DNA of 63,525 nt, filler included, from Bilabrum cf. latius (taxonomy: Eukaryota), in assembly GCA_965178125.1 (NCBI GenBank). It is 3 parts of 3 records of this genome, joined end to end, with 100 filler letters (N's around TTAATTAATTAA, not from the genome) between each part and the next. Parts side by side here need not be neighbours in the genome. Positions count along the whole stretch, not along the records: positions 50,636 to 63,525 come from CBCXTV010000062.1; 2 more parts are not named here. One strand, given 5' to 3'. Numbering within the stretch: the first letter of the stretch is position 1; every line of letters begins with the position of its first letter. The notes under the pieces are model-generated. The model saw only the letters and a list, made by a program, of their open reading frames with translations. It did not search any database and was not told the origin of the DNA. A program made the position numbers and the translations under genes. This document shows, in pieces, positions 3,645-63,525 of this stretch.

Positions 3645-3647
3645 TTA

Positions 3648-6976: not shown

Positions 6977-7001
6977 ACCCTAACCCTAACCCTAACCCTA
7001 A
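6977..7001 (+). repeat. Short interstitial telomeric tract (4 units)
   Basis: ACCCTAACCCTAACCCTAACCCTAA between copies B and C. Confidence 0.9.
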
Positions 7002-9696: not shown

Positions 9697-9697
9697 G

Positions 9698-10489: not shown

Positions 10490-10740
10490 AAAGCAGCCAG
10501 GCGGATGGCAATTGAGGTCAGTGGCAGCTGGGCCAGCTTGTGAGAGGAGCTTGCCAAAGTGCCAGCCAGTGACCCGTTAGGACGGAATAGTAGGAGCCAA
10601 GAGGCATTCTGTTTAGTCTTGGCTGTCAGCCGATGAATACCTTAAGTCAAAGCAATCCATCAATCGAATACAACGGTCATGTACACAATACCCATTCTAC
10701 AATTGACGAATCCACAATGCATTCTACAGAGACAAGCAAT

Positions 10741-13209: not shown

Positions 13210-13270
13210 ATGCAAAAAATGAAGATGAAAATATTTTTTCCTCGACCCTGTCCCTGACTTTATATTAGAT

Positions 13271-13295
13271 ACCCTAACCCTAACCCTAACCCTAA
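13271..13295 (+). repeat. Short interstitial telomeric tract (4 units)
   Basis: Identical to 6977-7001 including both junctions. Confidence 0.9.
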
Positions 13296-25302: not shown

Positions 25303-25402
25303 NNNNNNNNNNNNNNNNNNNNNNNNNNNNNNNNNNNNNNNNNNNNTTAATTAATTAANNNNNNNNNNNNNNNNNNNNNNNNNNNNNNNNNNNNNNNNNN
25401 NN
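25303..25402. other. Artificial contig linker
   Basis: 44 N + TTAATTAATTAA (stops in all six frames) + 44 N. Confidence 0.97.
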
Positions 25403-28400: not shown

Positions 28401-28993
28401 ACGTCCGGAGACGCGACGCTCGTGTTGATGCTCGGGGGAGTGCGCAGCTCTTCCTGTCTGAGGAGCCTCGCCCGAAAGTCAATGTGCTCCATGACCTTAA
28501 GGGCGCTCGGGAGCTGCGCCTCGGGAAGCAGCTGCTCGTACTCCGGCATGGTGAACCACGGATGGCCCTGGCCCATGTCCCGCTCGCGCAAGAGCGGCTT
28601 GCCGGAGTACCAGTCGTTCGGCGAGGTCCGCGGGTTCCACCACTGCTGTGAGTGCTGGCTCTCGTGGTCGGACCGGAACTCCTCGTTCTACCGAACGTAC
28701 TGGCTCCATGTAGCGTCGTCCCACCAGGAGCGCTCGGGCGCCTGGTGTTGGGGCCAGCCCCCTTGCTGGCTCCCGCTGCTGGTGTGAGTCTGCTGCTGCG
28801 CCTCCCTGCCCGATGTCCAGTGGCTGCTGGATGACGACCACCGCTGTGTCGAGGAGGAGGCGTTGGGAATCGAATTCGGTTGACCGGTGGGGTTCAGCCG
28901 ATCGGCATCCCCACCACCGGTCCAAGAGCTGCCGCTTTGCTGCCCGCTGCTCCCGTCCGCCCATCCGGAATGCCAGCCGCTGCCGGCCGACAT
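25403..28993 (-). CDS. Element 1 cargo ORF with an ADP-ribosyltransferase-like (HGT motif) domain; two in-frame TAGs (28688, 26666)
   Basis: Same frame from MSAGSGW through track ORFs 26666-28591 and 25355-26662; FYHGTWASCVPLILRKGLLPS near 28130-28065. Confidence 0.55.
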
Positions 28994-39048: not shown

Positions 39049-39972
39049 TTAGCTGTCCTCGAGCATGTGGGGCTGCTCCTCCTGAAAATGGCGAGGCGCG
39101 TCGTGGCGCGCCGGTCGAGCTCTGCTCCGTCCGTCGGGGAAGGTCTCAGTGATGCCGACGAGGGGGTTTGACGCGTTCTGATCTTGCAGGAGGGCGTAGG
39201 ACTTGATGTCGTTGACCAGATTCGCATAGCCGACCTGCGTCGTGGGCAAGACGTTATTCGGAAGGCGTCTCGTGATCTCCCACAGGGCATGCTGCGGGAG
39301 CCCACTCAGTCGGACCATCTGGTGGCAGTGGTGACGCCACGGAAAGAACTCCTTCCCTTCGTCGAGCTGTCGAGTACGGAGATATTCGTAGCGATCGTGC
39401 ATTTGTTCGAACGTCTCCGTCGAGTACCGCTCGAACCGGTAGAGCTCGTCATCAATGGCGGCCTGGTCATCGGCCGCCCTGGGCGCATACTTCTCCACGA
39501 GGTCAGTGATGATCATCGACACGGGGTCCTGAACGTGGCCAGTTGCGTCATTCGTACGGCCCCGGATCAAGTCGGTCACCTTCCATCGCTGTCGTAGGAG
39601 GGCGGCACTACCCTGCAGACCGTTGGCGACGATGTTGCCTATCTCGTGGTGCTGGAACCGAGTGACACTGAGCCAACGCTGCAGGTCCTCGATGTACTCC
39701 CGCAAGGTGTAGTTGCGATCGGCAGGGTTCCAAGTGGGCGGCGCCGTCAAGTTGCCCATCGTAATCGAACGCGCTGACCTGTACGGGATCGCATAGGCGA
39801 CGATGGTGAGGATGGCTGCGAGAATCATCGCATGCATCATCCCCAACAGGTAGTGCACACGGCTGTGGGTGGCGTCGGGAGGCTGCATGCGCTGCTGCAC
39901 CGTCAAGGTGATTTCCGACGTCCGGTAAGTCGTGCGGCTCGCCTCCGTCACGTCCGTCACGTGTTGCTTCAT
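39049..39972 (-). CDS. Gag-like capsid region, in frame with the polyprotein across one TAA
   Basis: APPTWNP...LREYIEDLQRWL and LYRFERYSTETFEQMHDRYE; immediately downstream of the PBS. Confidence 0.7.
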   Translation of the reverse strand: MKQHVTDVTEASRTTYRTSEITLTVQQRMQPPDATHSRVHYLLGMMHAMILAAILTIVAYAIPYRSARSITMGNLTAPPTWNPADRNYTLREYIEDLQRWLSVTRFQHHEIGNIVANGLQGSAALLRQRWKVTDLIRGRTNDATGHVQDPVSMIITDLVEKYAPRAADDQAAIDDELYRFERYSTETFEQMHDRYEYLRTRQLDEGKEFFPWRHHCHQMVRLSGLPQHALWEITRRLPNNVLPTTQVGYANLVNDIKSYALLQDQNASNPLVGITETFPDGRSRARPARHDAPRHFQEEQPHMLEDS

Positions 39973-40082
39973 TGAACCGTAATCGTCAAGGCTGCCGTCG
40001 AGTGGTGAGTTCGGCGACACAGGCGTCTCCCGCGCAGGGGACGTAGGGGTGGATCGGGAGGAGAGAGTCCTGCAACCACGCT

Positions 40083-40094
40083 GCTCCGCTACCA
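40083..40094 (-). promoter_or_regulatory. Primer-binding site of element 1 (initiator tRNA-Met type)
   Basis: TGGTAGCGGAGC upstream of gag; the identical 12-mer follows the 5' LTR of element 3. Confidence 0.75.
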
Positions 40095-41669
40095 GGTCGA
40101 GAGACAGCCGCCTGGCCCGCGGAATCATGCGCTCTTGAGCCCAAGATGTACAGCAAGATGACCTTGAAGCTCGCGTAGCGACGAACCATGGCTGCTGAGC
40201 AAGGAGATGATTTTCCGCTGATGAGCGCAAGGGACCGCAAGTCAGGGGATTGTCTCGGGGTATGCTATACAAAAGGAAAGAACTTGTATGGCTTGCTGCA
40301 GCAATAGCCTGAGCCGTAGCTGCCAACACAACCATAAAGGTGCACTGCGAGTGCACCCCCTCGTCGGGACCCTCCTTTGCCCGTGCCCTTGGCCTCGGGT
40401 CCCTTCCCAGAGCCCCTGCTCTGGCTCCTGGCCCCACGGCCTGCAGGCGGTGCCTGAGCCTGAGGGGCAGCCTTCTGCGTATCGCGCCTCTGTGGAATGA
40501 CCATGCGCGCGTAGAAGTACTCGACACGGCGATTGGGACGGGGCTCGTGAACGGACGGGTGAATGCCGAACATGTCCTCGTGGAAGTGGGCGGCATTCCC
40601 CATGTAGATCGGTCCGTTGATGACCGCACGATGGCGCCGGTACATGCCGTGGGCGTACCGGCACATCCAATCGTGGGCTTCCCGTCCCAGCATTCCACCG
40701 GGCCACTCTCTCGGATTGGCCATCGGGTGGACCCTCGCCCCCATGGGCTCGTAGTCGATGTCAAGAGGGGTCCACGGAACGTCCAGACCCTCCGGGACCA
40801 ACTCGCCGCCCATTCCCGAGACGGGTTCCGTTGCCGCGGCACTTGCCACCGAAGGAGTTATGCTGGGAGGGGGGACAGGCGAGGCGGCGGGCAACGCTGC
40901 GGACGAACCGCTGCTTCGTCCGACCGCCTGTGCCGCTTCCTCCCCCTGCTTCGCTCCCTTCGGGGTCTTCTTCCTCTTCTTACTCGTCGCTCCGGAAGAT
41001 GCCGCGGCCGAGGAAGGGGTACTGGGCTTCGGAACGGCGGGAGCCGCTATGCCGCAGCTGATGGCGTACTTGGCTTCGGAACGGACGCAGTCGACGGCGG
41101 CGGTGCCGTCCCGGACCCTAATGCCGACGATGCGGGGACCGCCGAAGACGCTGGCTCTGCCCCTGGCGTCATCGTAGGCTTTGGCCGCTCAACCTCATAC
41201 GCGCTCTTAAAGAACTTCCTCGACTTCCTTTTCTCCCCGGCCTCCGACGACTGAGCTTCTGCCACCTCCTGCTCAGCCTTCTCCCTCGCCTCGTGCAAGA
41301 ATGCCGCCGCTTTCGCCTGAGCGTCCTTCCTCGTATTGGCGAGGATCTCATCGCGCGTCGCCCCGATCCTCACGGCGGCTGACGGCGTGAACTCGCCAAA
41401 GCGGGCGGCCAATTCTCCCACGCGCGACCTCTTCTCCTCCCTCGTCAACGCTCCCGTAGGCTTGACGACCCGCGACCCCTGTGGCTGGGGCGGCTCGGGT
41501 CCCAGGCGAAGACGCCGAGACCTCGTATCCGGAGCCGCGACCGAGGATGGCCCTGACTCGAAGGCCAGCGCGACACGTCGCACGGAGCCCCCCCGTTCCT
41601 GAGCTTGGACCGTAACACGGGGCAACGCTGCGGACGAACCGCTGCTTCGTCCCGCACCCGGCGCCTTGC

Positions 41670-44600
41670 TCAAGGGAAGGGGGCGTCTCCTCGCTTGGTT
41701 CCTTCTTTGCCTGCTCCGCCGCCACAGGTCGCTTGAGGAGTCTCTTCTTCTTCTTCTTCTTCTTCTTCTTCTTCTTCTTCCTTCTTCTTCTTCTTCTTCT
41801 TCTTCTTCTTCTTCGTCGGTGCGGACTCCCCCTCTTCCTTCGCGGTGGGGACGGCTTTGGCCTCAGCAGCGGCAACCACGGACTCGGTGGCTTCCGCCGT
41901 GGCGATAGGGGCTTCCGAAGTGGACAACGCTGCGGACGGACCGCTGCTTCGCCCTCCCTTCTTCCCCTTGATCTCCTTGGCGATACCCGTCCGAATTTCC
42001 GTGGCGACGCCCGTCCTTACCACCGGCTCCTCTTTGATCGCGACCGACGCCGGCGCTTCCTTCTTCTTCCCCGTCACCCGCTGCTTGGTTCCGGAAGGCT
42101 TCGCCGAGGACAACGCTGCGGACGAACCGCTGCTTCGCCCTGGTTTAAGCTCCTTCACCTCGCTAGCGGACATGGAACGGGGAGCGCCCGCAGGACCAGC
42201 CGGGGCGGCCTGCATCTCGACGTCGGCGTCCAACTTGGGCACCACCTTGAGCGAGAACGCTCCCATCTCCTCGTGCCCAGACCGTCGGACCCTCGCGAAC
42301 ATCCTGGAGAGCCTCTGTACCCCGGAATTTGTCGACACCAATGCCCTTGAGGCCTCCTTGGACGACATCGCCCGCGCAGCCGCAGCCCTTGCCAATCCGG
42401 CCCTCTGTCTTGCTGTGCGGCTGGCGTCGATGGGGTCGTCCTGGGCGTCGGGGTTGACGAAGATGACGTCATGATCCCCCCACACCCGCATGGTGTCCAC
42501 CAGCGACTCAATAGCCCGATCGCGATCGATCGTCGCGAAGCACGTGGCGATCCGGTCATCAATGCCCGCTTCCGGTCCGGAAAGGGTCTCGACGATCCAA
42601 TCCCACAATCCGCCCGGATCATTAGCGACCACCTCCTCAAACTCACTGATGTGTCTGATGATCGCGTCCTGGGGCATGAAACGACACGCCATCGTGAGGG
42701 CCCGAGTCTCGGCACGAATCCGAACGTCCGTCGGGTTGGTGCTGTCCGTTTGGGCCTCGCCCAAGTAGGCCGCGGCCCAGTATGTGAAGAAGCTTTGCGC
42801 CTTCTCACGCACCGTGACCTCTCCTGGTGTCGGGGACATCAGGCCCGGGGGAACCACCCACGCCTCCGTGCAAGTGGGGGCCGTAGAAAGTACCGTCCCC
42901 TTCTTCTGTGCCTCATTCCTGCGGTACTCCTCACCCTCCTTGGTCTGGCTGGTCCACGCCATAATGCGGTTCCTCTGCTTAGTGACCAACCTCGAGGCCG
43001 TGTTCTCATCGGAGGTCGCCTTCCTCTTCTTGCCGAGCTCATCCGTCGGGTCGCGATAGTACTCGCGCCTCAGCGTTCGCAACGCTTCCTGTGCCTGGAC
43101 GAGCTCGGTCGGCTGCGCGACGGCGGCCTCGACCGGCTGGCGGCGGGGGCGATACCCGAAGAGCGTTCCGCACTCGGGCTCCCCCTCATTGCGCACCGCC
43201 GCACACTTGGTGCTCCCGGCGATGACTCGCGCGTCGCAGATCGGGCACTTGAAGGACTTGTCCACACATCCTTCCACCGGATTGACAGCCGTCTCCATAA
43301 CGAGGGGCTGTTTCATCCACTCGGCGACGATGCGGAAGGCCGGGTCGCGAGTCCCCTTCTCCTTCCGAGTGCCGGCCCCAGGGGTTTGGCTTCGGGGCAA
43401 CGCTGCGGACGAACCGCTGCTTCGTCCCTCCGCCGTGCCCCCCGGGACCTGCGCGGGAGCCTGACCTCCGGACAACGCTGCGGACGAACCGCTGCTTCGC
43501 CCTTCGGCCTTGCTCCTCTCCTCGTCCGCCTGTGCCCTGATCTCGTCCCGCTTCCTGAGGGCTGCCGGGGCGTTGCCCCGAATCGCCACCTGCGTCGGCA
43601 CGTCAGCCATCCAGGACCGATGCCAGAGGTGCGTATACACTCTCGACACCGGGTTGAGGGTCACCACCGACTCGACGCAGCAAGACGGAATGGCATCCAA
43701 ACACAGGACCGAACCGCTCGTACTGACGAAGACGCTGTCGCGACGTACGACGTCATACAAGCGATCCAGGTCGACCCGGAGGAAAACTCCCGAAGTCGAC
43801 GCCCCTGCCCTATAGGCCGTGGAAGCCTCAAGGTTCCAGGGGGCCAAGAACGCCAGATGGACTGGCCTGTTCGCCGGCTGGATCCCTGTCATTAGGATGC
43901 TCTCCAAGTTCTTCGCCTCCGTGTGGTGCCACAGCCCCTGATTGAGCTTCTTCATCACGCGCGTGTCGGGCGAACGCAGGGCCAACCTCTCCATTCGGAT
44001 GAACTCGAGGGTATGGCCCTGAGCGACACGGACGAACTCCCACGTACACCTGACCGTGTGGTCCGCCGCCGTGCGTTTTCGCATTCCGACCTGGAACCGG
44101 GACTTCCCTGCTCCCAGCACGATGAACTGCAGCTCCATCATCGTGAGTTCTCGCTGGATGAGCCTTCTCGACACCATATTGTTGAGACGGTTGCGGAGGT
44201 GGTCCATCCGCACCCATCCCCCCGAGTCCATCGGGAGGGCCACCGCCTTGAGGTTGTACCCCCCCCCCCCCGTCCTCGGGACGGTGACGCCCACCTCGTG
44301 GCGCAACCACCGATTGATGGTGCGAGAAAACTCGTCCACAATCTTCGCGCCCATGTTGACCCGAAACCTCTCTGCCCTCTTGAAGAAGTCGGGAAACTGC
44401 TCCGATCCCGTTTGGAGCATGAAGAGGCTCCAGGCGAGCATGTTCGCATCGCGCGAAGCGACGTAGAATTCGTCTCGCATCCGGATGTTGAGGAGGTCCC
44501 GCTGGAACGACGTGCCCGCAAGGTCCCGTGGGTCGACGGTATCCGGCGGATTCAACAGCGAGTCGTTTTGAATCGCCGGGTCCGTCCGGAACAACTGACC

Positions 44601-49063: not shown

Positions 49064-49795
49064 TCACCAGACCTTCCGACACGACCTTGACCACCCCTTA
49101 TGAATCGCTCTCGCAAAGGAATCAGGATAAATCTCCGATGCTTTGGTAATAGACCCCTCGCATCGGACATGATGGAAACCCCCACCATGGGAACATGACA
49201 AGTGGGACCCGTCATCCCTAAGGGGTTTTCCTATCCCGTCCAAGAGCGAACGGACGGTAGAATCGACACGCCATAATTGCTCCCCGCGGCGCGGGCCGAC
49301 GTGGGCCACAAGACCCACTTCGCATCCATGGACAACCATGGAGCGCATGTTGAGCGACCGCAACGTGTCGCGAATGGCAACCTGGTTCGTCCCGTCCGGA
49401 CAGCGTCCCTCCTCAGTCCAGTGCCAGTAGGAGCAGGCCAACGGCCACTCCCATGCCAGGTCGGCCTTCCCAGACCGAACCCAGGGCAGCACCACCGAAC
49501 AGAAGGACTCCCAAAGACGCCTGAGATCATCCCAATGTTCCTTAATCTTATCCTGCGTATCGGGGTTTCCCTTTCTCCAAGTTTGCCTTTGCCACGGAGA
49601 CCCGCCCGTGCACGGACAAGACACCCATATCAACACAGGGTGTGCGAGAAGCGCCGAAGTATGCGGCTCACCTTGCACCTGCCTTTCATGCACCGGAAAT
49701 CATCCACCAACGTGATGCGAAAGACGCGACACGAGGGATGGGCCACAGCCCCAATGGTGGAGGTCGCAGAGCAACAGATCTCGATAATAACGCGC
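49064..49795 (-). CDS. C5 cytosine-methyltransferase-like domain fused after RNase H (frameshift near 49660)
   Basis: VIIEICCSATS (motif I-like), IWVSCPCT (IV, PC), AWEWP (VI), VHGCEVGL (VIII region), SEIYPDSFARAI (X-like). Confidence 0.6.
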
Positions 49796-49989
49796 GAAAC
49801 ACCCCCCGAACCCCCCGGACCCCCAAAATCCCCCCGTCCGTGCGGGGGCGGGGCCTCGGGGCCCGACAACCCACAGAACGCTGCGGACGAACCGCTGCTT
49901 CCCACGGGCGCCGGAACGGCGGCTTCCTCGGCCTCAGCTCGCAGGGCCGCCTTCGTCGGGGGCGGGTTCGCCCAGAAGTGGATATTCCC

Positions 49990-50535
49990 CGCGACCGTGA
50001 AGGAGGAGACGTCATAAACACCAATAAGAGTGCAGACGGCCCTCCATTTGTCCCCGTTATCAAAGGCCTTGGTGTAGATGTCGGCGGCTTGACGATCGGA
50101 CTGGACATACATCAACGAAATGTCCGACCGGGAGAAGGTCTCGTGCAACGAGGCCACCGCCACGGCGTGGGTGCGCAACAGGTGTCGCATCGTGGGATTG
50201 CGTCCCGAGCGGCACACCCGGATCATTGCCTCGTTATCCTCGTGAAAGCAGAGGGGGAAATGCCCCGGACACAAGACATCCCATAGGTCCAGCATGGGCA
50301 ACCCCTCCCGCCTCAAGGCGAGATCCGCCGCGACAATTTCCGCCTCTGGCGTGGAATGGCTAACGCAATCCTGCCTCTTGCTCTGCCCGTTCAACGGAAA
50401 GTACGTATGGGGGCCCGAAATGGCAATGTGCATGCCCGAGGTCGACTTCTTCGAAGGATCGCCGGCAAAATCCGCATCGGCGTAAAGGTCGAAGGTAACC
50501 TCAGACATGCCGTCCCCGACGTACCCCATCTGTCG
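49990..50535 (-). CDS. Copia-type RNase H (C-terminus of pol, 5' part off the contig)
   Basis: LYADADFAGD, KSTSG, SHSTPEAEIVA, FHEDNEAMI, QAADIYTKAF. Confidence 0.92.
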
Positions 50536-50635
50536 NNNNNNNNNNNNNNNNNNNNNNNNNNNNNNNNNNNNNNNNNNNNTTAATTAATTAANNNNNNNNN
50601 NNNNNNNNNNNNNNNNNNNNNNNNNNNNNNNNNNN
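50536..50635. other. Artificial contig linker
   Basis: 44 N + TTAATTAATTAA + 44 N. Confidence 0.97.
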
Positions 50636-51972
50636 GCAGGAGCCGGGAACCCGCTCACGTGTGAGGACGGGCGCGGAGCGCCGTGGGGACGGCCGGAACG
50701 CAAAGGTCCCCGGCCGGGAAGGGGCCCGAGGGCCCGACCGCCTGGGGAGGGCGGTCTCACAGCACAAGGGGCGCCGGGGCCCGGAGTTGGGCCCCGACGC
50801 CGGCCCTCCCGGAAAGGGGACGGTCGGACGGGTCGGGTCCGGCGTCGCGCGCACGAGACGGGCGCGAGCTATTTCCCCTCACTGGCTCCACGTCTCGAGC
50901 TCACAAAGTGACTGCGGACACGCGTACACGACGGACGACCGCAAGAACGATAAACGAAGCAAATCACAGCGATCTGGCAAGCGTCACTACCTGGCATCGC
51001 TTTTCCGCTCTCCCCTCGAGATCCCAAAAACAACAAGCCCTGGGGATGTGGCACGCTTGAGGCGCCGAAGCATGTCGTCGAGGACCGGCGTTTCATGGGA
51101 ATTCAATGCAGCCGGACACGGCGCACCTCGACAGCCAGAGGTTCACATATGGCATGTGTCTTCCACCGACATCTGAGATTCCAGTTTCAACACTGAAGAG
51201 GGGATTTTTAGCGCCAAGGCCCCCGGGTCGCATACCAAATTCCCCACGACTGTCGAGCCGCCAACGGGCTGATGGACGGGCGCGCGGGCGGGCGGGCGGA
51301 CGCTCGCGGGCGCACGCCTCCCAGCCGGGGCCGGGGCGTCCCGAGAGGGCCCACACACGGATGCGGGAGGGTCGGAAGGTGGTCGACCCCACACGTGTTG
51401 GCAAGGTGGAGCCTACGGGCTTGAAACCAAATCCTCAGCAACAGGGCTGAGGCGGGCGGAGCTTGCGAACCTGAAACCCGTCGGGAAGGCGGTGCGCCCA
51501 CTGGCCCTTCCGCACCCGCTGTTCGGCGAGCCCCCACGATGTGCCGCCCCCGGGTTGAGCCACGCCGGGGGAAGAGAGAAGTGGCGCAGCCGCGCCTGCT
51601 CGGAGGTCCGGGGGGCCGCCAAAGACGGGCCGGTGCGCTGGCCCGGAGTGTAGCGGCGCCAAGCACTCCCGACCTTGGTGAATTTTGCACGCTCATACCG
51701 GGCGAGCTGCGGCGGCCCGAGCACGTGGGGGGGGCCACGCGCGGCACCATGTTGCTGTACAAGTGATGGGCGCCCAGGCCGGGTAAAAGGGTATGATGCA
51801 CCCCGGCTTCGTTAAGCAAGCGGTCGTGCGACGGGCCAGGAGGGATTGATGGCAAGACCAATGCATAAGCAGCGTTCCAAGCAGTCTCACGCCCGAACCC
51901 CGGCCATTTGGCAAATCGGGGCTCGATTCGGCAGAACGCGCGACAGGGTTAGTACGATTGGGGGTGTTGAAC

Positions 51973-52071
51973 CGGCCCGGGCACGGCCCGAAGCCCAGTC
52001 CAGGCCCGGGCCCGGGCCCCGGTCCGCGGGCCCGGGACCGGACCCGGGCCTGGGCCCCAGGCCGGGCCGGG
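51973..52071. repeat. Degenerate (CCCGGG)n tract, left flank of element 3
   Basis: Seen directly; a matching tract lies at 62864-62920. Confidence 0.7.
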
Positions 52072-52072
52072 C

Positions 52073-52300
52073 GTTGCGTCAGCCCCTCATGTATCATCGC
52101 ATTCGCACTGACATTCCTTACCAGGCCGTCTCCGCAGTGTCTCCGACATCACCAGCAATATCGCTGGATTTTCTTGTACCGACGAGTGGCGATCCACCTT
52201 TGGTGCAACTCCGAACCATCCCCTTGTCTGTCGCAACATTGGCAATGGACGACCTCATCTTGAGCCCGATCGACTTCACATCCGCTACCACCAACTTCCA
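52073..52300 (+). repeat. 5' LTR (only its 3' part is recognisable)
   Basis: Blocks CATCGCATT.GCACT, GCCGTCTCC...GTCTCCGAC.TCACCAGCAAT...GTACCGACGA and ACCACCAACTTC are shared with 62655-62863. Confidence 0.75.
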
Positions 52301-52302
52301 AG

Positions 52303-52314
52303 TGGTAGCGGAGC
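52303..52314 (+). promoter_or_regulatory. Primer-binding site of element 3 (initiator tRNA-Met type)
   Basis: LTR end ...TTCCA, 2-nt spacer AG, then TGGTAGCGGAGC. Confidence 0.8.
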
Positions 52315-52462
52315 ACGATTTGAGGACCGACGGACGCCAGAATTGCATACCACGACGAGGGAGTTTCGCGTGAGCAAACAAGGATTCATCCTTGCAGTTT
52401 GACACCGAATCTCGTGTGAGTGAACAGGTGTTCTCACCTGTTGCCAAACGTAATGCTCACCT

Positions 52463-55400
52463 TTGAGGACTTTGAGAGTGACGTCAATTACAGCAACGGC
52501 GGCTAGGCATACGCAATGGAGCAACGAACCCTGGCTCTGTTCTCGGAATCCACGGCATCACAACGAAAACCCCTCCGTCCTTCGACGAACGTACCTCCTG
52601 GTTCTCCTACGCTGCTCGGGTCGACGACGGGTCGACCTCACAGTGGTGAACGCCGAGAAACACGGACCAGCACTCAATCACAGGCTCCTCGGACGAGAAG
52701 CAATCCACGAACCGCTCTTCGACAGAGACCTTCTCAAGGATCCGGATACCGGTGTACAGTACTTCAACGACACACTTCGACCGCACTTCGTGAAAGGCAA
52801 CCAATCAGTGTTCCTGTGGCGGTCATTCTAGTTGCTGCTTTGCAACAGAAGTACTTATGACCTCGTGAAGTGGATCGGCAAGTTGGCAGTCCTACATAAG
52901 CGTGTCCAAGACGCCTGGACAGACCTTCTGCCGGCCATCGACGACAACAATCCCGAGTACCGAGCACAAGCAGTTCGCGCCAACGCCGTGCGATCACGGG
53001 ACGGACGCAACACCCTGGACCCTCTTGACCCTGAGGTCTTCGCCGAGTTCACGGAGCGCAAACAACGTCTCCAACGCGAAAACTTTCCGCTGAACGACCA
53101 CCTCTTCACGTTGACATTCGTCGCCCTTTCCGACTTGACGGAAGAACAGCGCGAGCGGCTACAATCCACCAAATCTCTCCGAAAACAGCGCATCCAAGAC
53201 TACACCTTTGACACAATCCGGGGCGTATTCGTGGAACTCTTCTGCGCACCGCGCAGCAGCCGTGACAGTCCAAGCCTACGATCCGGCGGCACCGGCCGTT
53301 CCTTCTGGATTCTCTGCATTCTCGAGGATGGACACATGGACTGCTACCAGGGGTTCTGGTGTCAAGACGACATGACCAGCGACGAAAGCTTCTCGCCAGA
53401 GGACACGTTCTGGGTCTTCGACGAGACCGCCGAGCTGACGGCCATGACGCACATGCTTTCATGACCGATCAAACCAACACAACAGCTTCTATGCAAAATT
53501 GGCGGACAAGTTTGACGCAATCCTGCGTATATGGCTCTGGATCTTGGGTGCACACGAGCCATGGGATCCAGAAAACCATGCGAAGCCTTCGCGAAGGAGG
53601 CTTCCTGGCACGGCATGCATGTGCAATACCCACCAGGCCAGACGAATTTTGCCTTTGCCAACGGGAAGACAACGAAGGTGACGACGACCTGCACTATCTG
53701 GTTCCCGACGAAGCCGCCGTCTCCCACACAAGTCGACGTTATCGACGAAGGCGCTGTTATATTTCCTTCTTCCTCAGATGATGATCCGTGTGGAACCAGG
53801 TTTTGCGTACGTCATCGGTCTTCCTTGCTGACTCAGGACTTGCGACTTGAGGTCTCTACGACAGAACATTCGGCGCTCGACTTGGCCTCCCTTCGCCACT
53901 GCCCGACCGGTCCAACGATGACCGTGACGCCGGGCGTGACGTTCGCGACGCACGGCACAGTTTGTGAGCGAAGGCCTGACACACAAGCCCCGAATGAGGA
54001 GACCGCGAAATCGAGCGCCGTGCCAGTCGGAGCACACGAGCGAGACCCCAACTATCCGGCGTGTCAAGGAAAACGCAGTAAACACGCGCGCGGACGCATT
54101 CGCAGGGAGATGGACGCCAACTTGTACGCCGATCCCCCCACGCTAGAGACGCTGCCGAGGTTCCGTGTGAGCGGACGAGAACTGACGCTCCGCCCGAGGA
54201 TCCGCGCCAAGAACCAGGCGCGCAAAAGGAAGTGGTGCGCGAGCGGTCGCCTCGACTCGAGCACCCGTCGGACGTTGGACGGATCTCAGGATCCAACACA
54301 GGACCGACGGAGCGACGCGACGCCCTCCTGGATCCCACTCCTCCGGTCCCGGAACCGCCTCCGGGGAACGATATCGACTAGGAACAAGGCGCGGTCCCGG
54401 CTGATTGCACGCCTGGACGACGACACGAAGCTTTGAGGTCTCCACCTCAAGCATTTCCCTGTGTCCACGTTGCAGTTTCTCAGACGAACTCCGCATCTCA
54501 ACCTTCCGCAGAAGATCTATGACCGCTTCGACCGTGTGATTCGCACTTGCGAATACTACAGCCGGCACCAGCCGGCGCCACACTGAGGCCTGGTGTCCGA
54601 CTTGCACGCAGAGAACTTCGGAGATCTTATCTTCTTGGACCATGACCAGGTGAAGATCAACGCGCAGAAACTCTTCCTCATCGTCCTTGCCGGAGTCACT
54701 GATTTCCTGGCGGCCTATCCTCAGACGACGCCAAGTCCGGAGGACATGGTCAGGAACATTCACGACTGGAGGGACACCTACTCGTGCAATCCCAAGCGCG
54801 TTGTTGCCGACGTGGCTTGCCACACACCAAAGACCGTTCGAGATTTCGTTCGGCATCGCAACGCTCGGCCAATGCTGACTGGACCGGCCACGCTGTGGCC
54901 CAACGGGGTCGAGTCTGGCGTATGTCTTTTCAAACGATTCTCCCGGGCACTCGCCGACGTCATGAAACGACCCAACCTAAGCCATGTGACTCCCCGACAA
55001 CTCATTCGCAAGGCCGCCGCGGCTCGCAACACGTCCATCGCCAAGAGCGGCAAGACACCGCTCGAGCTTGCCCTCTGTCGCCGGCCGCGCGATCTCCTCG
55101 ACGCGTCCACCGCGGCCCCGCAACGACCGACCGCGCAAGGCCGGGCAAGACAGACGAGGGGATCCAGAAGGTCGCCATAAAGATCCACCTTGAGGTCACG
55201 CAGCCGGAGGACCGCCGAAGAAACCTCGCCGCGTCCCTCTGGTTTATTGACGGAACATGCTTCCCAGGAGACCGTGTGTAGTACTGGCAGTCCAATCCGT
55301 CGGACATCCGGCATCGGCCAGTGGATTAAGGCGATGGCTTTCTCCGTCAGTGGGCCGATCTGCACCATCGACGCCGGCGCTTTGCTTCTCAAGGTCAATC

Positions 55401-58400
55401 AGTCGAAGTTGAAGAAGGAGCCGGACACTCCCGACAAGGATCGTCCGATCTCCAGCTCGCCCGAGTGATTCTCACGTGAGCGAGCGGCAGACGTCATTGA
55501 TGCACCACCCGGGGACAATCTTTGGCAGTGCTCTCACGGCGAGCCGCAACTGCCTTCAACTCTTCACCACTTCCGCACGTCTGAGCGCCGTTCTCCAAGT
55601 TAGGACTCAAGGTCGGACCGCCGACCGACACCCAATGTCAGACATCAAGCGACGCCGACGCGCTCATTACCAAGAGTTGACAGCTTGTTGAGCAGTGCGC
55701 CCCGTCCATTGTCTTCACGAGTCTCATTGACGCCGGGGCGAGCAATAGATCTCGCGTGAGCGCGCGGGTCAACGACTTCATGTTCGAAGTCGCCGCCTAT
55801 CAGATATCACGCGGACAGAGCTTTGTCTTGGGACTTTCAGAGCACGATGACTACAAGTACGAGGCTCCCTTCTCACACCGAGGCCAGCTCCCAAAGGTTC
55901 AGAGGAAGTGACGCAAGTTGCTTCATGACCGGGCGCCACGGAACGATACAGCCAGACAAGAACACGCCGACGCTGCGCCTCGCAAACAAGCTTGGCAACT
56001 CCATGGGGACAATTTTCCGACGACGCCCCGACTCCAATTCCCCTGACTCTCCACAGCCGGACTCCGCGGATGTCCAGTCTTGGGCATCCAGCGGCGTCAT
56101 GTCCGACCTGTTTGCCCATGACGCGGGCACGACGTCAGAGCCGGAGCAATGCTTCTTCCTGTCCGATGTGCTGGGCATCATGGCGCCCACCGCGGCCGAG
56201 GAGAAGGGGCTCTGCTACGACCTTAAGTCCCGCGTGAACGGACGGTCGGCTCGTGCGATGCGCACGGTTTCGGCGTTAGCCGGCCCAGAGCCAATAAAGA
56301 CGACGCTGAGTCCGAATATCCGCCAGGCCACGGCGGCGCTGGACAGCCTGCCCCTCGGGCGCCAGGTTTTTTTCTGGCGGACAACACCACCGCCATGGCG
56401 TCTTTCGCGGTTCCACACCTGTCTTCCCTTCGCTGGCGCTATCTTCCGGGCCAACTCTTCTACCACAGCAGAGTACTCCGAGGAAACAGTGGAATCACCA
56501 TGTCGGTGCGAGGAGTGGAAACAGAGGACAACGTTTGGGTCCTCATGTGGCAGACCGGCCAACATGACCCTGGAGTCCTCGGATGGCGATGGCTCCATGG
56601 ACGACAGGACGGTTACGCACGCAGACACGCCGATCCGTCCATCCCACAAGATCCTGACGGTGGACCGCCGCGGCCTCAAGGCGCCGGCCCGGCACATCAT
56701 AGGATCTCGTCAGCTCCCGATCCCGAACAGGACCGCGGGGGAGCTCAGCAATCCAAGAGTCACCAACGCCGTCGGCACCGGCGGCGCCTCCGGCACCTCC
56801 GTCACCTCGCGCCCATGTAGCGATCGCGATCGCAAGGGCGTGTGCCGTTGCCGCCTGCGAGACCGGCGACGCCGCTTTCGAGACCGGCGACCCTGTCCTT
56901 CCTACGCTAGGGTACGAGGACGAACATCCACACCGAGAGGCAGTTCTCCAAGACTCCGACAGAGACAGTGACGACGGCACACCTGCTCCAACAAGCACGA
57001 CAGGAGGGCAAGCAATGGGCAACCAAGCAACGGTCCCGCATCCAAGCCAGGACTCAACGGACAACCCTGCTACAAACCACTATCCGGAAGACTTCAACGT
57101 GTCCGACTCCCCCGCCTGCTTGGCAATGAGTTCGTCCGCGCACAGGATTGCATCGAATGCAAGATCATTCTCTTGCGTTCGTGGCGAGCTGAACCACCCC
57201 ACGACATCGATAGCATGCGCACACCGCCTATGGTACTGACCACGTGCTTCGAAGGCCCCACCTTCCTCTCACGTGAGTCTAGCATGAGCAAGCTGCAGTT
57301 GCGGCAAGACTTAGCCCTTGCGACAAGCGCGGCCGAGCAACGCGACCTTCAACAGTGCCCGAAGGCTGCGTCAATGGCAACTAAGAACCCGCTGAAGAAC
57401 AACGCGAGGAAGGAGGTCTCTTCCGCAAACCTCCGAAAGTACAAGGAACAGTTCGACCAGGCCCAGAAGCATGAGTACAAGTCGGACAATGACGTCGTCA
57501 GCCTCATCGACGATCGACGTCCGCAAGACCAAGCGTCGCAACTTTGTGACCGGACGTTGGGCGTTGACGATAAAGACCAATCAGAATGGAGCGTTCCGCA
57601 AGCGCAAGGCATGCTGGGGTCGTACGAGGTTTTCAGGAAGACAGACAGACGACCAACAGACAGACTCACCAACCGCCGCGCGACCAAGTTCCCGTCTTAC
57701 CTGCCAATTCGCTGCGCAGAGGTACGCGCGTCTTTCACATAGACCTCAAGACCGCCTTCCTTCAAGGCGAGGCGTACGTTGAAAGCCTGGCGTGGCTTGT
57801 CAAGCGCCTCTCGAGGGAGGACACCCTCGGAAAATCGCAGCTCGGCATAAGAAGCCAACATACGGGGCGATTCGCGCTCCGGTCGCTGGTGATATGGCTG
57901 ACGGGAAGTCCAGGTTGTATGGCATGACCCAAATGCGTCCGGATCCTGACCGTTATGTTCTCTATGATCATGCGACGAAGTCTCGCCTGAGCGACCACGA
58001 CAGTACTGCTAACACGTCTCGCGTGAGCAAGCCTGCGCAGAACTCGAAACTCAGCCGTATTCCCAGTACGCCGGACGCGGTCGAATACTTTCTCGACCCG
58101 ATCACCGGAAACCCGGCGCACGGGGAAATGCGTCGCAAGTGTGATCTCCCTGCACGTGGACGATCTGTTTGCGACAGCTGACCAGCTGCTTCAATACCAG
58201 TTCATCGCGCTGACTTCCAGGTCGGAGCAGAGATGCAGGACAATGCCTACTTTCTTGGCGAAAGAAGAATCCCCTGGTCTTCTACCGGAACAGCGCGCAA
58301 AGTGAAACGCTCCATACGAGTTGACCAAACCCTGGCTATTGAGGAACTCACAGAGATCTCCCTGGACCGAGGCATGAAGGGCGACGCTCCGCGCGCACCG

Positions 58401-59180
58401 AGCACGCGCGCCGCCTACCGCAGCGCGCTCGGACAACTCAACTGGTTACAGGCCCGCGCACAGTTCCACATCTGCTACCGTTTCTCGCCCTGCGCCTCGG
58501 CCTCTGCCGCGGCGACAATCGCCGACGTTCGCGCAGAGAGCAAGGCGGTCCGCGCCGTCCGTGCGACCCCTGTCACATTGAACTTGTTTGGCCCGTTCAC
58601 GGGACTCTCCGACTTGTCGGCTCTCCCGGCGCAGCATATCGGAACAACGCAGACAAGACATCGCAACGGGCACATGTGACGCTCCTCTGTGTCCCGCGTG
58701 AGCGGGCGGAAAAGAACACTTTTGGCTCTCTCATCACTTCGAAAGCCACAATGTCGACAGAACAGCCCGCTCCACCGCTGTCTCCGAACTGCATGAGTTC
58801 ATGAAACCCGATGGACGAGGCCAAGTCCTTCGCGGCCTGTGGATGGACATCCCTGGAGAAGTCGCCGACATTCACATGCACACCAACGCAAACAACCTAG
58901 CGGGGACCGCACCCACCACACACCTGCCAACACAGACGGACCCGATCCATATGATACAGATGCTTCCCAAGGAAGCGTGCTCGGGAAGCCTCCACGACTT
59001 AGCGTACATTCGAACCGCGCGCTCTTTTTCCGGCTGCTTAACGAAGCGCTCAGCCAAGCCACTCGAACTCATTCGCGCGCCCGCACTTGAGTCGGGAGTG
59101 CAACGTGAAGTGCATCTACATCCGAATTCTCGCACACTCACCAAGCATCGCGCCTTCTTGGCAGAGTGGCAGAGCATGTA
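52463..59180 (+). pseudogene. Fragmented gag-pol of element 3
   Basis: gag LRPHFVKGNQSVFLWR; PR MALDLGCTRAMGS (53531); IN LHLKHF, FGDLIFLDH, WPNGVESGV; RT HIDLKTAFLQGE (about 57740) and LHVDDLF (about 58150); many stops and frameshifts. Confidence 0.85.
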
Positions 59181-59699
59181 CACGAATATCGACCGAGGCT
59201 TCACCTCGGCGTCGGCAAGAGGTGAATGCGATTTCATAGGTGAATTCATGAGGTTGAAGAGGCTACGAAGACAGCGTCTGCATTTCGGTTTCGTGCCTCT
59301 CTCGTTTTTGCATTGTGTACATTGCATGCCTGCGTGCTTGTGCTTATTGCGCTCGCTTCATACATTTTTATGGGCTGTCGCTTTCCTGCAGTAGCCTCCG
59401 ACTCTGGCAGTGGCCCCATGCGCCAACGCTTTGCGTCGCAACGCCGCAGCCGAAGCTAGTATCGCGTGAGCGAGCTTCTGCTGCCCGACTCGTCGCCCGT
59501 TCACAAGACACCGCCTCAGAACACCTCGACATATACCGCCTGTCACAACAAGACATGAGGTCTCTTTGGGCGGCGTTCTTCCACAAGTCTCGCATGAGCG
59601 AGCCGGAAGTCGCCGACGAAGGTGAGGTGCCCAATCTAAATTGGGCAGCGAATGGGCGCGCGAGGTGCGAGCGTCGAAATGGCTCGCCCGCTCCGTGAA

Positions 59700-60300
59700 G
59701 CGCCTCGGCCTGACGATGACCGCTACCAAAATAAGCGTTCCTCATCAAGACCTGGTTCCCAACGCCCGGAATCTTGTACGCCGTCGTCAACCAGAATGCC
59801 AAAAGACGGTGTGAGCTCTCATGGGCTCATCAGTCTCGCATAAGTGAGCGTTCCGCATTTGCGCGGTGACAGGTCACAACGTCCGCGGCGTCGATCCCGC
59901 CGTGTCATCTCGCCAAACCTTTGCAGGCGAGGATAGCATCCCAGCGCGATGTGACCCGCCAGTGCTCGCTCCAATCGCGAGCGTCCCAACAATGCGCGTC
60001 CACGGCGCACGACTCGACAACGTACAAGGCATCCGGCGACAAAACTTTCTCCCCGGCGGCCCCCAGAAGTAACGAAATGCCGTGCATGTGGTAGCGCCGC
60101 TACCGGACGATGGCCAACGCGCTCTGTCGGGCCTCAGGGCCAATTCGGCGGTCTACATAGTCTTCGACCTCCACAACTGCTTGTTGGACGGTCGCCGCGC
60201 GTTCCTTTCGGAGAACGACGCGGTCTACATCTACGAAACGATCCCCATCTCATACGCGAGGTCCATCTTCAAGGTGTACGCGCGCAAAGAGATCTTCGGC
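59700..60300 (+). pseudogene. Degenerate Tpt1/KptA-like cargo domain of element 3
   Basis: In one frame: RICAVTGHN...VHGARLDNVQGIRRQNFLPGG..*RNAVHV...SGLRANSAVYIVFD...FLSENDAVYIYETIP. Confidence 0.7.
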
Positions 60301-62411
60301 CCGGAGCCCCGTGACGACGTGCGGACGATCTTGGACGATCATGTCCATGTGTTGGATACATGTTCAGCAATGCGCCAGAGCAAGTGGCGAGTGAAAATTA
60401 CACAAGACGCGCTCGCAAGATCGTGGTCACTAGAAGGCGACCGCCGCTAGAGGGGGTACATCGAAATACTACGCGACGCGGCACGCGTGATGCAGCCACT
60501 GCTCCGGGGCCCCCGGCGACACTGCCGACAACTGCCATGCAGCCGGCGCAAGTCTCGCATGAGCGAGCAAGTGACACCAAGCAAGAGGTGACCAAGGAAG
60601 AGGCCGATGAATGCGGCCGCCGCCGCAGAAGTGGTCAGTACTGGGGCCAATGCAAGGACCCGAAGAAGGATGATGCGAAGGAGGTCCGGTCCGAGCGCGC
60701 CAGTCTCGCGTGAGCGAGCATCAGAAGAGGAAGTGTCGATGCAAGACACATCGACGGCAGGAGTCTCGCACGAGCGACCGCGTGCCTCAAGCTCGGCCTC
60801 ATCAACATCGCACTGCACTCGGCGCTTTTCGAAAGGCTGGCATCTACGTACAGAACAGACGACGGCATTGAGGAAGAATACGATACACCAAACCTTGACA
60901 TGGAGACCTGCGTCCACGATCAAGAACTGAATTCCAACGCCCAAGACAGAAGCGCCCAACTGGGGCGTCTGCGGCACCGACGCGGACAGAGGACCCACGC
61001 GTGGATCCAAGCGCTCTGGCTCGTCTCGACGCTGCCAACTTTGGCAACTTGCAAGACCACTGTATGGCCAAGTGCTTCGAATTCTCGACCGGCTTATTTC
61101 CGTCCGGCTACGTGAAGAGGCTCGCCGACAGCCTTGACCAACATCACAGCGACTCCCGGCAACTCAGCGCCTTTTTCGTGACCTTCGGCGCGATCGTCAG
61201 GCCGTTGAACGAGATACCAAAATCGCAATGAGGTGTTTTGTCAGTGCTGGGGTTAAAAGTATGCTCAGAGTGTTCTGTCATGCGAGGCAGACACAACTGC
61301 CCAAATGGAACAGGAGACGTACGAGCGGTTCGGACTGGTCGGCAAGGGCAGCGAACACGGCGCGGATCTTGCCGTCTGTGCGCGCGGCCCGCGCACCGGC
61401 CCGAACGCTGTCCAAGTCCAGCTCATGTACGAGTTCCTGAACGACGGGACCCACGCGGCCACATACGACGTCTTCTTTGGCAACGTAGACAGTTCGCCCG
61501 ATTAGGGCGCCCCATCGTCGGCATCGGCGTCGCAGTCTCGCGTGAGCAAGCGCGCCTCTCAGTCTCGTGCGAGCGAGCACGAATGTGGCGTCAAGCGCGC
61601 CGGGACGGAACAGGTTCGCGCTACGGTGTCTCATATAGACCACAAAACCGCTTTCGAGAAGATCGGCAATGCGGAACGTTGCTTCACCTCGTTCCCCACA
61701 ATCGTGCTTGGAGTACAAAATGGACATCTACGCCTGAGATCCGGTACTACGGCAAACAACATGCAACGGATATGCCCTTTTCGATCGTGCAATGCTTGGC
61801 GCGCAGGCTGCTACACGATGTCAACAAGGACTTGCCCTTCGCTCGCCGTCTCTCCCAACAATCACAATGGCAACTTGACGAAGGATGATCCCGATTGTTG
61901 TGTCATGGCGAACTGAGGCTGGGGCAAAAGTACTCTCTCCAAGCTCGTCCGCGATTAACTGCAAGACGAGACCGCCGAACGGACATCTGAAGACACGCCA
62001 TGGCCGAGCAAATACTCCATAACGCCCTGCAACGCCTTGAGGCGCCTGGGAACTCCGACCTGACGACTGTTCCATTCGACGTCCGGCAGAGCCTCCACGT
62101 CGGACGCAAAACCTTGTGGCTCCCGGACACCGACTGCAGCTGGCACCTCCTGATCCTCGTCACATTGCGGGGGAACAGCAACAAGAAGTGGCGCCATAGC
62201 GGTCGGAAACGGGACAGAGCAAGACGATTGGCCGGAAAAGGGATTTCGCAACCGGCCATCGCAATCTCAACGGCCGTCGTGGCAAAATCAGTCTCGCATG
62301 CGCGAGCGGGGGTCAAGCGATGTGCGGTCAAAGCCGTACTTTCCTACAGATGCAGCTTCTTCTTTCCCCACTTCTCGCAAATGGGAGCAACAACAGCAAT
62401 CGTACTGCTCC

Positions 62412-62423
62412 AAGTCGGGGGAC
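62412..62423 (+). promoter_or_regulatory. Putative polypurine tract
   Basis: AAGTCGGGGGAC immediately before TAAAGTT, the near-inverse of the LTR end AACTTCA. Confidence 0.55.
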
Positions 62424-62863
62424 TAAAGTTGGGACTATGACCAGAACGGGGATTCGATCATCGGTGTGATGGAGAAGTCGAAGGGGATGGGGAACATCGC
62501 CAGTGAGATCTCAGTGACACAACTTCGCGTGAAGGAAGAAACGAGCGGTCACCGCATCTCACTGGGATTGAGATCGCCTGTACGATACAAATACACGCCC
62601 TGGTTTTTTCCGACGGCGAAGATAGCGTCTGTCTTTGTGTGCAGCGCAGGGCCCGTCGCGTCAAGCCCACATAATCCATCGCATTAGCACTCGCGTTCCC
62701 TACCCGAAGCTATTTCGCTTCCAAGTACATGCGCTTGCGATTCGCAGCCCAAACGAGCCGTCTCCACACCGTCTCCGACGTCACCAGCAATCTCGTTGAA
62801 GTACCTCGTACCGACGATCCAGAGCCCCATCCATCGACTCTACTTGCGCGACCACCAACTTCA
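62424..62863 (+). repeat. 3' LTR of element 3 (about 440 bp)
   Basis: Termini TAAAGTT...AACTTCA (one mismatch from a 7-bp TG..CA inverted repeat); homology with 52073-52300. Confidence 0.7.
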
Positions 62864-62920
62864 CCGGGCCCGGGCCCGGGCCCTGGCCCGGGCTCCGGCC
62901 CGGGACCGGGCCCGGGCCGG
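62864..62920. repeat. (CCCGGG)n-like tract, right flank of element 3
   Basis: Seen directly. Confidence 0.8.
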
Positions 62921-63525
62921 TTCCCTACCCCCAATCCTACTAGCCCCTGTCCTCCGTTCTGCCGATCGAGGGACACCCCCGGTCACTTGAGTCCTTATTG
63001 GTGTGGCGTTCCGTCGCAAGCCGAGCAAGCACTTTGGCGCAACGCGTCCATCCGTCGAGTCGGCCTCCACTCGACATTCCCAGCTTTCTGGCCCGCCACG
63101 TTATTGGGCAGAGCCCCTCTCTGGTCATCCGCCCCAAGCCCGCCCCGGCCATTGAATATAAATAGCGGGTCGCGCCGCTTTTCCATTTCACACAGGTTTT
63201 TGAATGGACACCCCGGTGTTTTCCAGGTGCCACCGTATCCCCCCCTCCATCTACCAATTTCCGGGTCGGCGTCCCTGCTTGGCGGCCGCGGGAACACTTT
63301 TGGTGCTGGAGGGCCGCAAGGGCTTCGGCCCGACCGAGACAAGTCCTCTTGGGCGGCTGGTATGCCGGGCCCAAGCGCCTGCACCGTCACGAGCGGCGCG
63401 ACGATGCTTGTTTTGCCGCATACCGGATCTGCCAACCACCGCTCTGTGCAACCAACATCTGTGTGTCCAGACTTGATCAATGCGGACCTTTGGGCGTGTG
63501 GGTGCTTGGGTCGCTACTGAATGCG

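Follow-up and report, generated by a model that had tools for sequence, protein, structure and literature searches.

The stretch of DNA analysed here (the window) is 63,525 nucleotides long, filler included, and comes from the genome assembly GCA_965178125.1 of Bilabrum cf. latius. It contains 176 N in four runs, from which two separators were recognized (25303–25402 and 50536–50635); the window therefore consists of three contigs, at 1–25302, 25403–50535 and 50636–63525. The feature under study is a Tpt1/KptA-like segment on the plus strand of contig 3, in what is probably a dead Ty1/copia long terminal repeat (LTR) retrotransposon. The G+C content of contig 3 is approximately 0.57–0.62. Two elements in contig 2 were used for comparison and are named 2a (upstream, with its ribonuclease H, RNase H, at the contig edge) and 2b (with gag, integrase and reverse transcriptase, RT). 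The features of contig 3, with the basis of each assignment in brackets, are as follows.

51960–52063, no strand: 5' flank, a (GGGCCC)n-like low-complexity tract (sequence)
52064–52300, plus strand: 5' LTR of ~237 nt, exact start uncertain (three collinear similarity blocks)
52303–52314, plus strand: primer-binding-site (PBS)-like TGGTAGCGGAGC (2 nt, AG, past the LTR end)
52363–62305, plus strand: span of all 16 contig-3 copies of the hairpin motif GTCTCGCRTGAGCGA (all between the LTRs)
52450–54436, plus strand: gag/protease-like region, by eye only (open reading frames, ORFs, at 52454–52831, 52832–53464 and 53516–54436)
54440–55194, plus strand: integrase core region (frameshift-aware alignment to the 2b integrase)
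57628–58726, plus strand: copia-type RT with several frameshifts (frameshift-aware alignment to the 2b protein P0020)
58602–59079, plus strand: RNase H-like region, marginal (shuffle score; motif order by eye in ORF 58702–59394)
59626–60450, plus strand: Tpt1/KptA-like pseudogene, significant core 59845–60339 (single frame, in the phase of the RNase H ORF)
59812–59814, plus strand: in-frame stop TGA (translation)
59845–59847, plus strand: in-frame stop TGA (inside a copy of the element's hairpin motif)
60070–60072, plus strand: in-frame stop TAA (directly before the conserved RNxVH motif)
60451–62648, plus strand: remaining 3' internal region (six further hairpin-motif copies)
62649–62863, plus strand: 3' LTR of ~215 nt (similarity to the 5' LTR)
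62864–62925, no strand: 3' flank, a (GGGCCC)n-like tract (sequence)

The Tpt1-like stretch occupies a single plus-strand frame with three internal stops, no frameshift and a final TAG at 60448–60450, as seen in the translation of 59455–60450. A read-through translation of 59626–60450, with X at the three in-frame stops, was compared with the Pfam Tpt1/KptA family PF01885 (profile length 177, curated cutoff 26 bits). The match (E 3.2e-8, 34.3 bits) exceeds the cutoff and places residues 74–200 (59845–60225) on profile positions 71–173 of 177. As a frame control, the remaining five frames of the stretch were searched and returned 0 Pfam families at E ≤ 10. A family profile built from 18 relatives, with the contig-3 copy left out, gave 32.8 bits and E 3.9e-9 over 59998–60288, and yeast Tpt1 (7yw4_A) was the sole significant match among PDB sequences (E 5e-6, over 59959–60339). 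In tblastn searches with divergent Tpt1-like proteins, the top contig-3 matches fell at the same place (P0007, E 2.9e-5; P0015, E 2e-4; P0011, E 3e-3). The agreement of Pfam, the family profile and yeast Tpt1, together with the five empty frames, makes the homology of this segment to Tpt1/KptA in the C-terminal NAD+ lobe secure at the level of sequence comparison. The segment also carries a signature, 'LPGG + 3–4 residues + RN.VH', that is common to the element-borne family and is not shared by the canonical protein P0018.

Several searches on single pieces or single sequences were weaker. The open piece 60073–60447 alone matched PF01885 with E 9.1e-4 and 19.8 bits, below the cutoff, over profile positions 125–173; it is the top PF01885 match of the 102 contig-3 plus-strand ORFs of at least 40 amino acids, and marginal after 102 tests. 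Frameshift-aware scores of the single sequences P0004, P0011 and P0098 against the stretch were weak, with P0004 beaten by one shuffle, and an early family profile, for which the contig-2 copy served as anchor, gave no significant score in contig 3.

The catalytic tetrad of Tpt1 is Arg-His-Arg-Arg (PMC6333775), and its positions were mapped through the yeast Tpt1 alignment, with Arg-His in 'LRH', the next Arg in 'KxRF' and the last in 'RNxVHL'. In the contig-3 copy, Lys-Arg replaces Arg-His. The KxRF position reads 'K-stop-A-F', with an alignment that is unreliable there. The sole tetrad residue kept is the last Arg (RNAVHV). Because the Arg-His dyad is replaced and the frame holds three stops, the contig-3 copy is, as judged from its translation, a non-functional pseudogene.

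The LTRs surrounding the segment were delimited by three collinear blocks of similarity between 52061–52298 and 62646–62862 (BLAST E 6.5e-6, 1.7e-11 and 0.002). In the aligned pair, 125 of 165 bases are identical, with a Kimura two-parameter distance of 0.30 and 121 gap columns, and both copies terminate in ...ACCACCAACTTC(C)A. The flanks are alike as well (52000–52057 versus 62864–62925, 80.6% identity, E 3e-10). Since the same (GGGCCC)n-like tract precedes the 5' LTR and follows the 3' LTR, the element is read as an insertion into this tract. Elsewhere in the window, the PBS-like 12-mer is found unchanged at a single place, 40083–40094 on the minus strand, which is the coding strand of contig 2, ~110 nt before the 2b gag Met. 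Its exact occurrence at the equivalent place indicates that the contig-3 element and 2b share a PBS. We presume a likeness of this 12-mer to the end of an initiator-Met tRNA. Across the whole window, Rfam at gathering thresholds returned 0 families and ARAGORN 0 tRNAs, giving no ribozyme or tRNA gene.

Coding remnants of the element were scored with a custom frameshift-tolerant protein-to-DNA aligner, using 100 codon shuffles as controls. The RT-RNase H protein P0020 of 2b (Pfam RVT_2, E 2.8e-7) scored 134 against 57628–58726 (shuffles 56.2 ± 7.9, maximum 84, n = 100; reverse strand 57; z ~9.8). The 2b integrase (Pfam rve, E 0.0014) scored 93 against 54440–55194 (shuffles 52.2 ± 7.0, maximum 72, n = 100; z ~5.8). 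The integrase lies upstream of the RT, and the gene order is therefore that of Ty1/copia. The Tpt1-like frame is on the coding strand of the element and in the phase of the RNase H ORF 58702–59394 (58702 and 59626 are both phase 1); it starts ~0.55 kb past the RNase H-like region, and 2.2 kb separate its end from the 3' LTR. Comparison of the remaining 3' internal region (60451–62648) with the tails of the contig-2 Tpt1 ORF, P0004 and P0014, and with the 2b ORFs past RNase H, gave nothing significant. Pairwise tblastx and tblastn searches of contig 2 versus contig 3 yielded at most noise, the three RNase H regions did not match one another in BLASTP, and a word-indexed protein search found no longer relatives of the contig-3 RNase H ORF.

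A short motif dispersed through the element links the Tpt1-like stretch to its surroundings. GTCTCGCRTGAGCGA, which is able to form a small hairpin, CTCGC-RTGA-GCGAG (5-bp stem, RTGA loop), has 17 matches in the window at ≤2 mismatches versus 0.36 expected, 16 of them in contig 3 and one in contig 2. The Tpt1 stretch contains the motif and has further copies on either side. Two copies, at 59587 and 59833, fall in the Tpt1 frame and read VSHERA and VSHK-stop, and those in the 3' internal region lie at 60552, 60703, 60763, 61535, 61562 and 62291. With copies both around the stretch and within it, the motif serves as a marker connecting the segment with the element. In the visible ORFs the motif is mostly read as VS[HR]ERA, and the copy at 58691 shows a compensatory change from T-A to C-G.

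Evidence from outside the window comes from a database protein, P0098 (1621 aa). P0098 has a Tpt1-like C-terminus (family profile built for this analysis, E 3e-6) together with RVT_2 at residues 687–823 and integrase and RNase H motifs recognized by eye. Its last 292 residues match PF01885 with E 1.5e-5 and 25.5 bits, just below the cutoff. It is one of 120 copia polyproteins, those listed for the RNase H of 2a (124 homologs at E ≤ 1e-3). In a maximum likelihood tree of 20 Tpt1-like sequences, the P0098 domain falls inside a clade of 'standalone' relatives, with support 92/91.

Within the window, contig 2 holds a second Tpt1-like copy that is intact. Two contig-2 features matter for the comparison.

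43650–44345, minus strand: intact Tpt1-like domain, the comparison copy (PF01885, E 7.7e-14, 52.6 bits)
49633–50535, minus strand: Ty1/copia RNase H at the contig-2 edge (upstream of the contig-2 Tpt1 copy, same strand)

The domain is a full-length PF01885 match at residues 1032–1242 of a 1918-aa minus-strand ORF (47426 to 41673), and it keeps all four Arg-His-Arg-Arg positions. An AlphaFold2 model of the domain (predicted local distance difference test score, pLDDT, 81.4; predicted template modelling score 0.69) has a two-lobe fold. Its top 21 PDB fold matches are all Tpt1/KptA (best E 6.3e-10), with template modelling scores of 0.75–0.78 normalised to the target. The 2a RNase H ORF (50535 to 49633) lies ~5.6 kb away, with the Tpt1 domain on its 3' side and ORFs of no assigned identity between; many of its 124 homologs carry RVT_2 and one is named 'Ty1/Copia family ribonuclease HI'. 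The contig-2 Tpt1 copy is part of the tail of 2a, the upstream element, and not of 2b, whose gag, integrase and RT run from 40 kb to 25 kb. The initial annotation, which had spoken of it as the copy of 'element 2', is corrected accordingly. The two Tpt1-like copies of the window are only 18% identical in alignment, and tblastn between them found no similarity; the contig-3 copy is closest in alignment to canonical P0018, with 25% identity.

Taken together, these observations make it probable that 52064–62863 is an old, dead Ty1/copia LTR retrotransposon of ~10.8 kb and that the Tpt1/KptA-like domain was formerly its own cargo. The element would have inserted into the (GGGCCC)n-like tract, and its predicted order is LTR, PBS, gag/protease, integrase, RT, RNase H, Tpt1/KptA-like domain, ~2.2 kb with no known match, and LTR. 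Most of what the initial annotation had described at this locus is borne out. The decayed Tpt1 motifs do occur in order, as the Pfam match to the read-through shows, with the order in the N-terminal lobe seen by eye only. The copy is on a separate contig and quite divergent from that in contig 2. Its strand, its frame, the LTRs and P0098 support the view that the domain is part of the element and not a neighbouring host gene. The proposed location between RNase H and a polypurine tract/3' LTR is right for the RNase H and the 3' LTR; no convincing polypurine tract was found. The segment does lie between two LTRs, as had been stated, although 'clearly' is too strong a word for a ~225 bp repeat that is 76% identical.

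A number of points weigh against this interpretation. As for the element, the LTRs are short (~225 nt), 76% identical and interrupted by two large indels, and both flanks consist of the same low-complexity tract, hiding any 5-bp target-site duplication. No clear purine run stands directly before 62649; purine-rich runs occur 100–180 nt upstream (62469–62497 and 62529–62548). The RNase H-like region is marginal, scoring 62 where shuffles gave 43 ± 7.2 with a maximum of 70. The gag and protease were recognized by eye only, and a frameshift-aware comparison of gag with that of 2b was not significant. Pfam found 0 families in three-frame read-throughs of the contig-3 gag, integrase, RT and 3' regions; it sees no contig-3 integrase or RNase H, and its RT evidence is just RVT_2 at E 0.13 on the piece 57574–57927. 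A jackhmmer profile of the 120 copia polyproteins likewise left the contig-3 RT and RNase H undetected. As for the domain, a read-through of 59470–59850, where the N-terminal RNA-binding lobe would be expected, returned 0 Pfam families at E ≤ 10. The N-lobe (~59670–59811) is ordered by eye only, with 'SKWLARSVKR...LGLTM' opposite 'SKxLxxxLRH...lpMD', and has no statistical support. The Tpt1-like domain is missing in 119 of the 120 copia polyproteins. With the contig-2 domain as query, exhaustive HMMER searching of 1.84 billion representatives found 17 proteins at E ≤ 1e-3 (121–877 aa); all match PF01885 and 0 of the 17 have RT or integrase in Pfam. In the tree, the contig-3 copy sits on an end branch of 3.24 with no supported grouping, and it is about as near to cellular Tpt1 (yeast, E 5e-6; P0018, 25%) as to the element-borne family.

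An alternative that we consider unlikely is that the Tpt1-like stretch is a fragment or processed pseudogene of a host Tpt1 that landed in a copia element already dead, or was trapped there by rearrangement, and never belonged to the coding capacity of the element. The direct match to cellular yeast Tpt1, the top alignment identity to canonical P0018 and a tree that does not tie the contig-3 copy to the element-borne clade are all compatible with such an origin, as is an N-terminal lobe that is missing or unrecognisable, as in a truncated insertion. Against it, the stretch shares strand and frame with the RNase H ORF, two copies of the element's motif lie in phase, one inside the stretch and one just upstream, and the stretch shows the LPGG/RN.VH signature of the element-borne family that P0018 lacks. 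The same architecture is moreover fused in P0098, and contig 3 has no match (at ≤3 mismatches) to a 15-nt piece of the dinoflagellate spliced leader.

Still less likely, in our estimate, is that the Tpt1 module (a Tpt1 domain with a zinc ribbon and a long tail, seen in P0002, P0004 and P0014) is a separate multicopy gene or mobile element that tends to adjoin copia elements or to be nested in them; its place past RNase H in both contigs would then reflect association only. This would fit the relatives of the contig-2 domain, which show PF01885 and neither RT nor integrase, and the distance of 5.6 kb, with other ORFs between, that separates the contig-2 domain from RNase H. Against it, P0098 is a single predicted protein that combines integrase, RT and RNase H with a Tpt1-like domain, and this domain groups within the clade of those 'standalone' relatives. 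The tail of the contig-2 RNase H ORF and the Tpt1 ORF carry a common hairpin motif (14 copies, minus strand), and the contig-3 segment lies between LTRs with no internal boundaries visible. A fortuitous match, arising in GC-rich DNA where long frames stay open by accident, is a reading that the sub-cutoff score of the largest open piece (marginal after 102 ORFs) and the non-significant score of the early profile dominated by the contig-2 copy might suggest; it is ruled out for practical purposes by three independent, concordant searches in the same frame and order (Pfam, the contig-3-free family profile and yeast Tpt1) and by the empty control frames.

If the domain was indeed cargo of the contig-3 element, its ancestor may have made it as the C-terminal part of Pol or in an ORF read on from Pol, and the domain would thereby have been present where RT, genomic RNA and the tRNA primer are. 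By analogy with the family, the domain in living relatives would transfer ADP-ribose from NAD+ to a nucleic-acid phosphate. The predicted outcome is removal of an internal or terminal RNA 2'-phosphate, or ADP-ribosylation of a 5'-phosphate end, and a possible use would be to clean or protect the RNA template or primer after host RNase cuts that leave 2',3'-cyclic or 2'-phosphate ends. We propose more tentatively, with confidence that falls somewhat short of even, that one or more copia lineages in this dinoflagellate-like genome carry a catalytically competent Tpt1/KptA within Pol or read on from it. Given how far the two window copies have diverged, the domain would have been gained very early or taken up on more than one occasion.

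Further searches for relatives of the contig-2 copy gave few additional leads. A word-indexed protein search found no long proteins sharing the contig-2 Tpt1 region, and a genome-contig collection (which holds no eukaryotic genomes) scanned with the contig-2 Tpt1 domain and RNase H contained no relatives. By precomputed Pfam labels, additional domains occur in some copia polyproteins related to the contig-2 RNase H: dUTPase (PF00692) in P0043, Tet/JBP (PF12851) in P0101 and PABP (PF00658) in P0114. The copia clade of the 2a RNase H thus seems prone to gaining accessory domains. A further domain of ~200 aa (…EWPLACSYWHW…HGCEVGL…), at 49067–49699 on the minus strand, directly follows the copia RNase H of 2a. 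It belongs to no Pfam family and was matched in 39 of the 120 related copia polyproteins; the ESM Atlas returned unnamed clusters only. On two contig-2 ORFs of no assigned identity, the ESM Atlas was uninformative.

The minus strand of contig 2 (25403–47426) contains exceptionally long frames of 2570, 1918, 936, 673 and 602 aa, several parted by a single stop codon. In one contig-2 ORF, gag (zf-CCHC, residue 227) and integrase (rve, residue 2060) are ~1800 aa apart, far more than in an ordinary copia element. Element 2b appears to have inserted against or into 2a. Its likely 5' end, at 39970–40335 on the minus strand, consists of a ~240 nt AT-richer stretch followed by the PBS 12-mer (40094–40083) and the gag Met (~39970). 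This end directly abuts coding-looking 2a sequence, which suggests that 2b is nested in the 2a tail or abuts it; the 3' LTR of 2b is off the contig. In the 2b ORF 28687 to 26669, residues 186–207 (28055–28132, minus strand) read CFYHGTWASCVPLILRKGLLPS, ~1.2 kb past RNase H. In the family profile for Tpt1-like domains, the core 'WHGT…iLr.GLlPG' is matched by this piece at E 0.01, and Pfam finds nothing there. It provides a lead, from sequence resemblance, that 2b may carry a far more diverged ADP-ribosyltransferase (ART)-like domain at the same position. A single-sequence AlphaFold2 model of the 2b region past RNase H was unusable (pLDDT 31.8).

Hairpin motifs are dispersed in both contig-2 elements as well. 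Element 2a has 14 near-identical copies of GAAGCAGCGGTTCGTCCGCAGCG, with a GGACGAA/TTCGTCC stem, between 40895 and 49901, all on the minus (coding) strand; they run from the RNase H ORF tail (49879–49901) through the Tpt1 ORF. All of them fall within ORFs and are read in at least two phases, as GRSSGSSAALP or DEAAVRPQRCP, and the same peptide occurs in the database paralogs P0002 and P0021. In 2b, nine dispersed hairpins (26464–38970, minus strand) share a loop, GGATGCCGATCGGCTGAA, that contains the palindrome GCCGATCGGC, and their stems of 9–11 bp are wholly different between copies yet complementary. In these stems 96% of cells are paired, versus 72.8% in shuffles (0 of 500 reach 96%) and 22–51% in slid controls, and compensatory changes are found at 8 of 14 pairs. 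Each of the nine lies on the coding strand, where it is read in frame as a DADRL(N/K)PT-like peptide. The 2b hairpins may be structured RNA signals, e.g., packaging or dimerisation sites. The contig-3 element, 2a and 2b thus each have a different dispersed hairpin motif.

Contig 1 is of a different kind. Its first part (1–14796) contains telomere-type (ACCCTA)n blocks at 1–605, 3427–3644 and 9483–9700, interleaved with 155-bp satellite arrays and 100%-identical multi-kb duplications. The G+C content is ~0.45–0.50 in contig 1 versus ~0.6 in contigs 2 and 3. The region looks subtelomeric, or like an assembly of collapsed repeats.

Accessory domains in retrotransposons and KptA in viral polyproteins are known already. 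Full-text literature searches, covering main texts, brought up no retrotransposon with a reported Tpt1/KptA domain among the papers listed. If the proposal holds, these would be the first known retrotransposons with their own NAD+-dependent enzyme for processing RNA ends or 2'-phosphates, and a replication step, or a host attack on element RNA, would involve 2'-phosphate or cyclic-phosphate ends. The accessory domains of retrotransposon polyproteins are a record of the limits on their replication. With Tpt1/KptA among them, 2'-phosphate, cyclic-phosphate or 5'-phosphate ends of RNA or DNA would matter to the life cycle of these copia elements. Such ends could come from host RNase attack or primer processing, or from junctions made by ligation at which reverse transcription is blocked. 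What Tpt1 does physiologically, beyond tRNA splicing in fungi and plants, is described as still open in the available text of one source (PMC6573784), and a selfish element that pays for Tpt1 would offer a new, tractable setting in which to seek its substrate. The value of the dead contig-3 copy is positional, since in it the domain is seen between LTRs.

Compared with cellular Tpt1/KptA/TRPT1 (PF01885), the contig-3 segment has a homologous C-terminal NAD+ lobe, and its contig-2 relative has the two-lobe fold. The cellular proteins are encoded by free-standing genes, whereas the contig-3 copy probably lies inside a retrotransposon and is a pseudogene with no Arg-His dyad. The element-borne family is also very divergent from cellular Tpt1, scoring ~50 bits against PF01885 versus 185 bits for canonical P0018.

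KptA domains have been reported in jumbo phages, sawfly nucleopolyhedroviruses, Bodo saltans virus and a few positive-strand RNA-virus polyproteins, with a proposed role in cleaning 2'-phosphate or cyclic-phosphate RNA ends (PMC9503650, available text). The resemblance to our case lies in an ART-fold domain on a selfish replicon, sometimes embedded in a replicase-type polyprotein. The carriers described there are viruses, whereas here the carrier would be a Ty1/copia LTR retrotransposon with the domain past RNase H; the word 'retrotransposon' is absent from the available text of that paper.

Among retrotransposons, the elements SmTCL1-4 of Symbiodinium microadriaticum (PMC5776459, available text) are similar in being LTR elements of ~10 kb with integrase upstream of RT, and with RNase H. 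The contig-2 RNase H shares 47% identity with a named S. microadriaticum protein. Only the RT, integrase and RNase H domains and the flanking LTRs are named for SmTCL1-4 in that text, from which the word 'phosphotransferase' is absent. Accessory domains have been described in other retrotransposons, namely a chromodomain and a DnaQ-like exonuclease (PMC6338049) and, in dinoflagellates, DNA methyltransferases (PMC5890265); according to the latter source, a DNA methyltransferase domain is lacking from Symbiodinium copia elements (PMC5890265). The available texts of these two sources do not mention Tpt1, KptA or phosphotransferase. The element proposed here resembles these accessory-domain retrotransposons in that a host-type enzyme domain would have been added to the gag-pol set.

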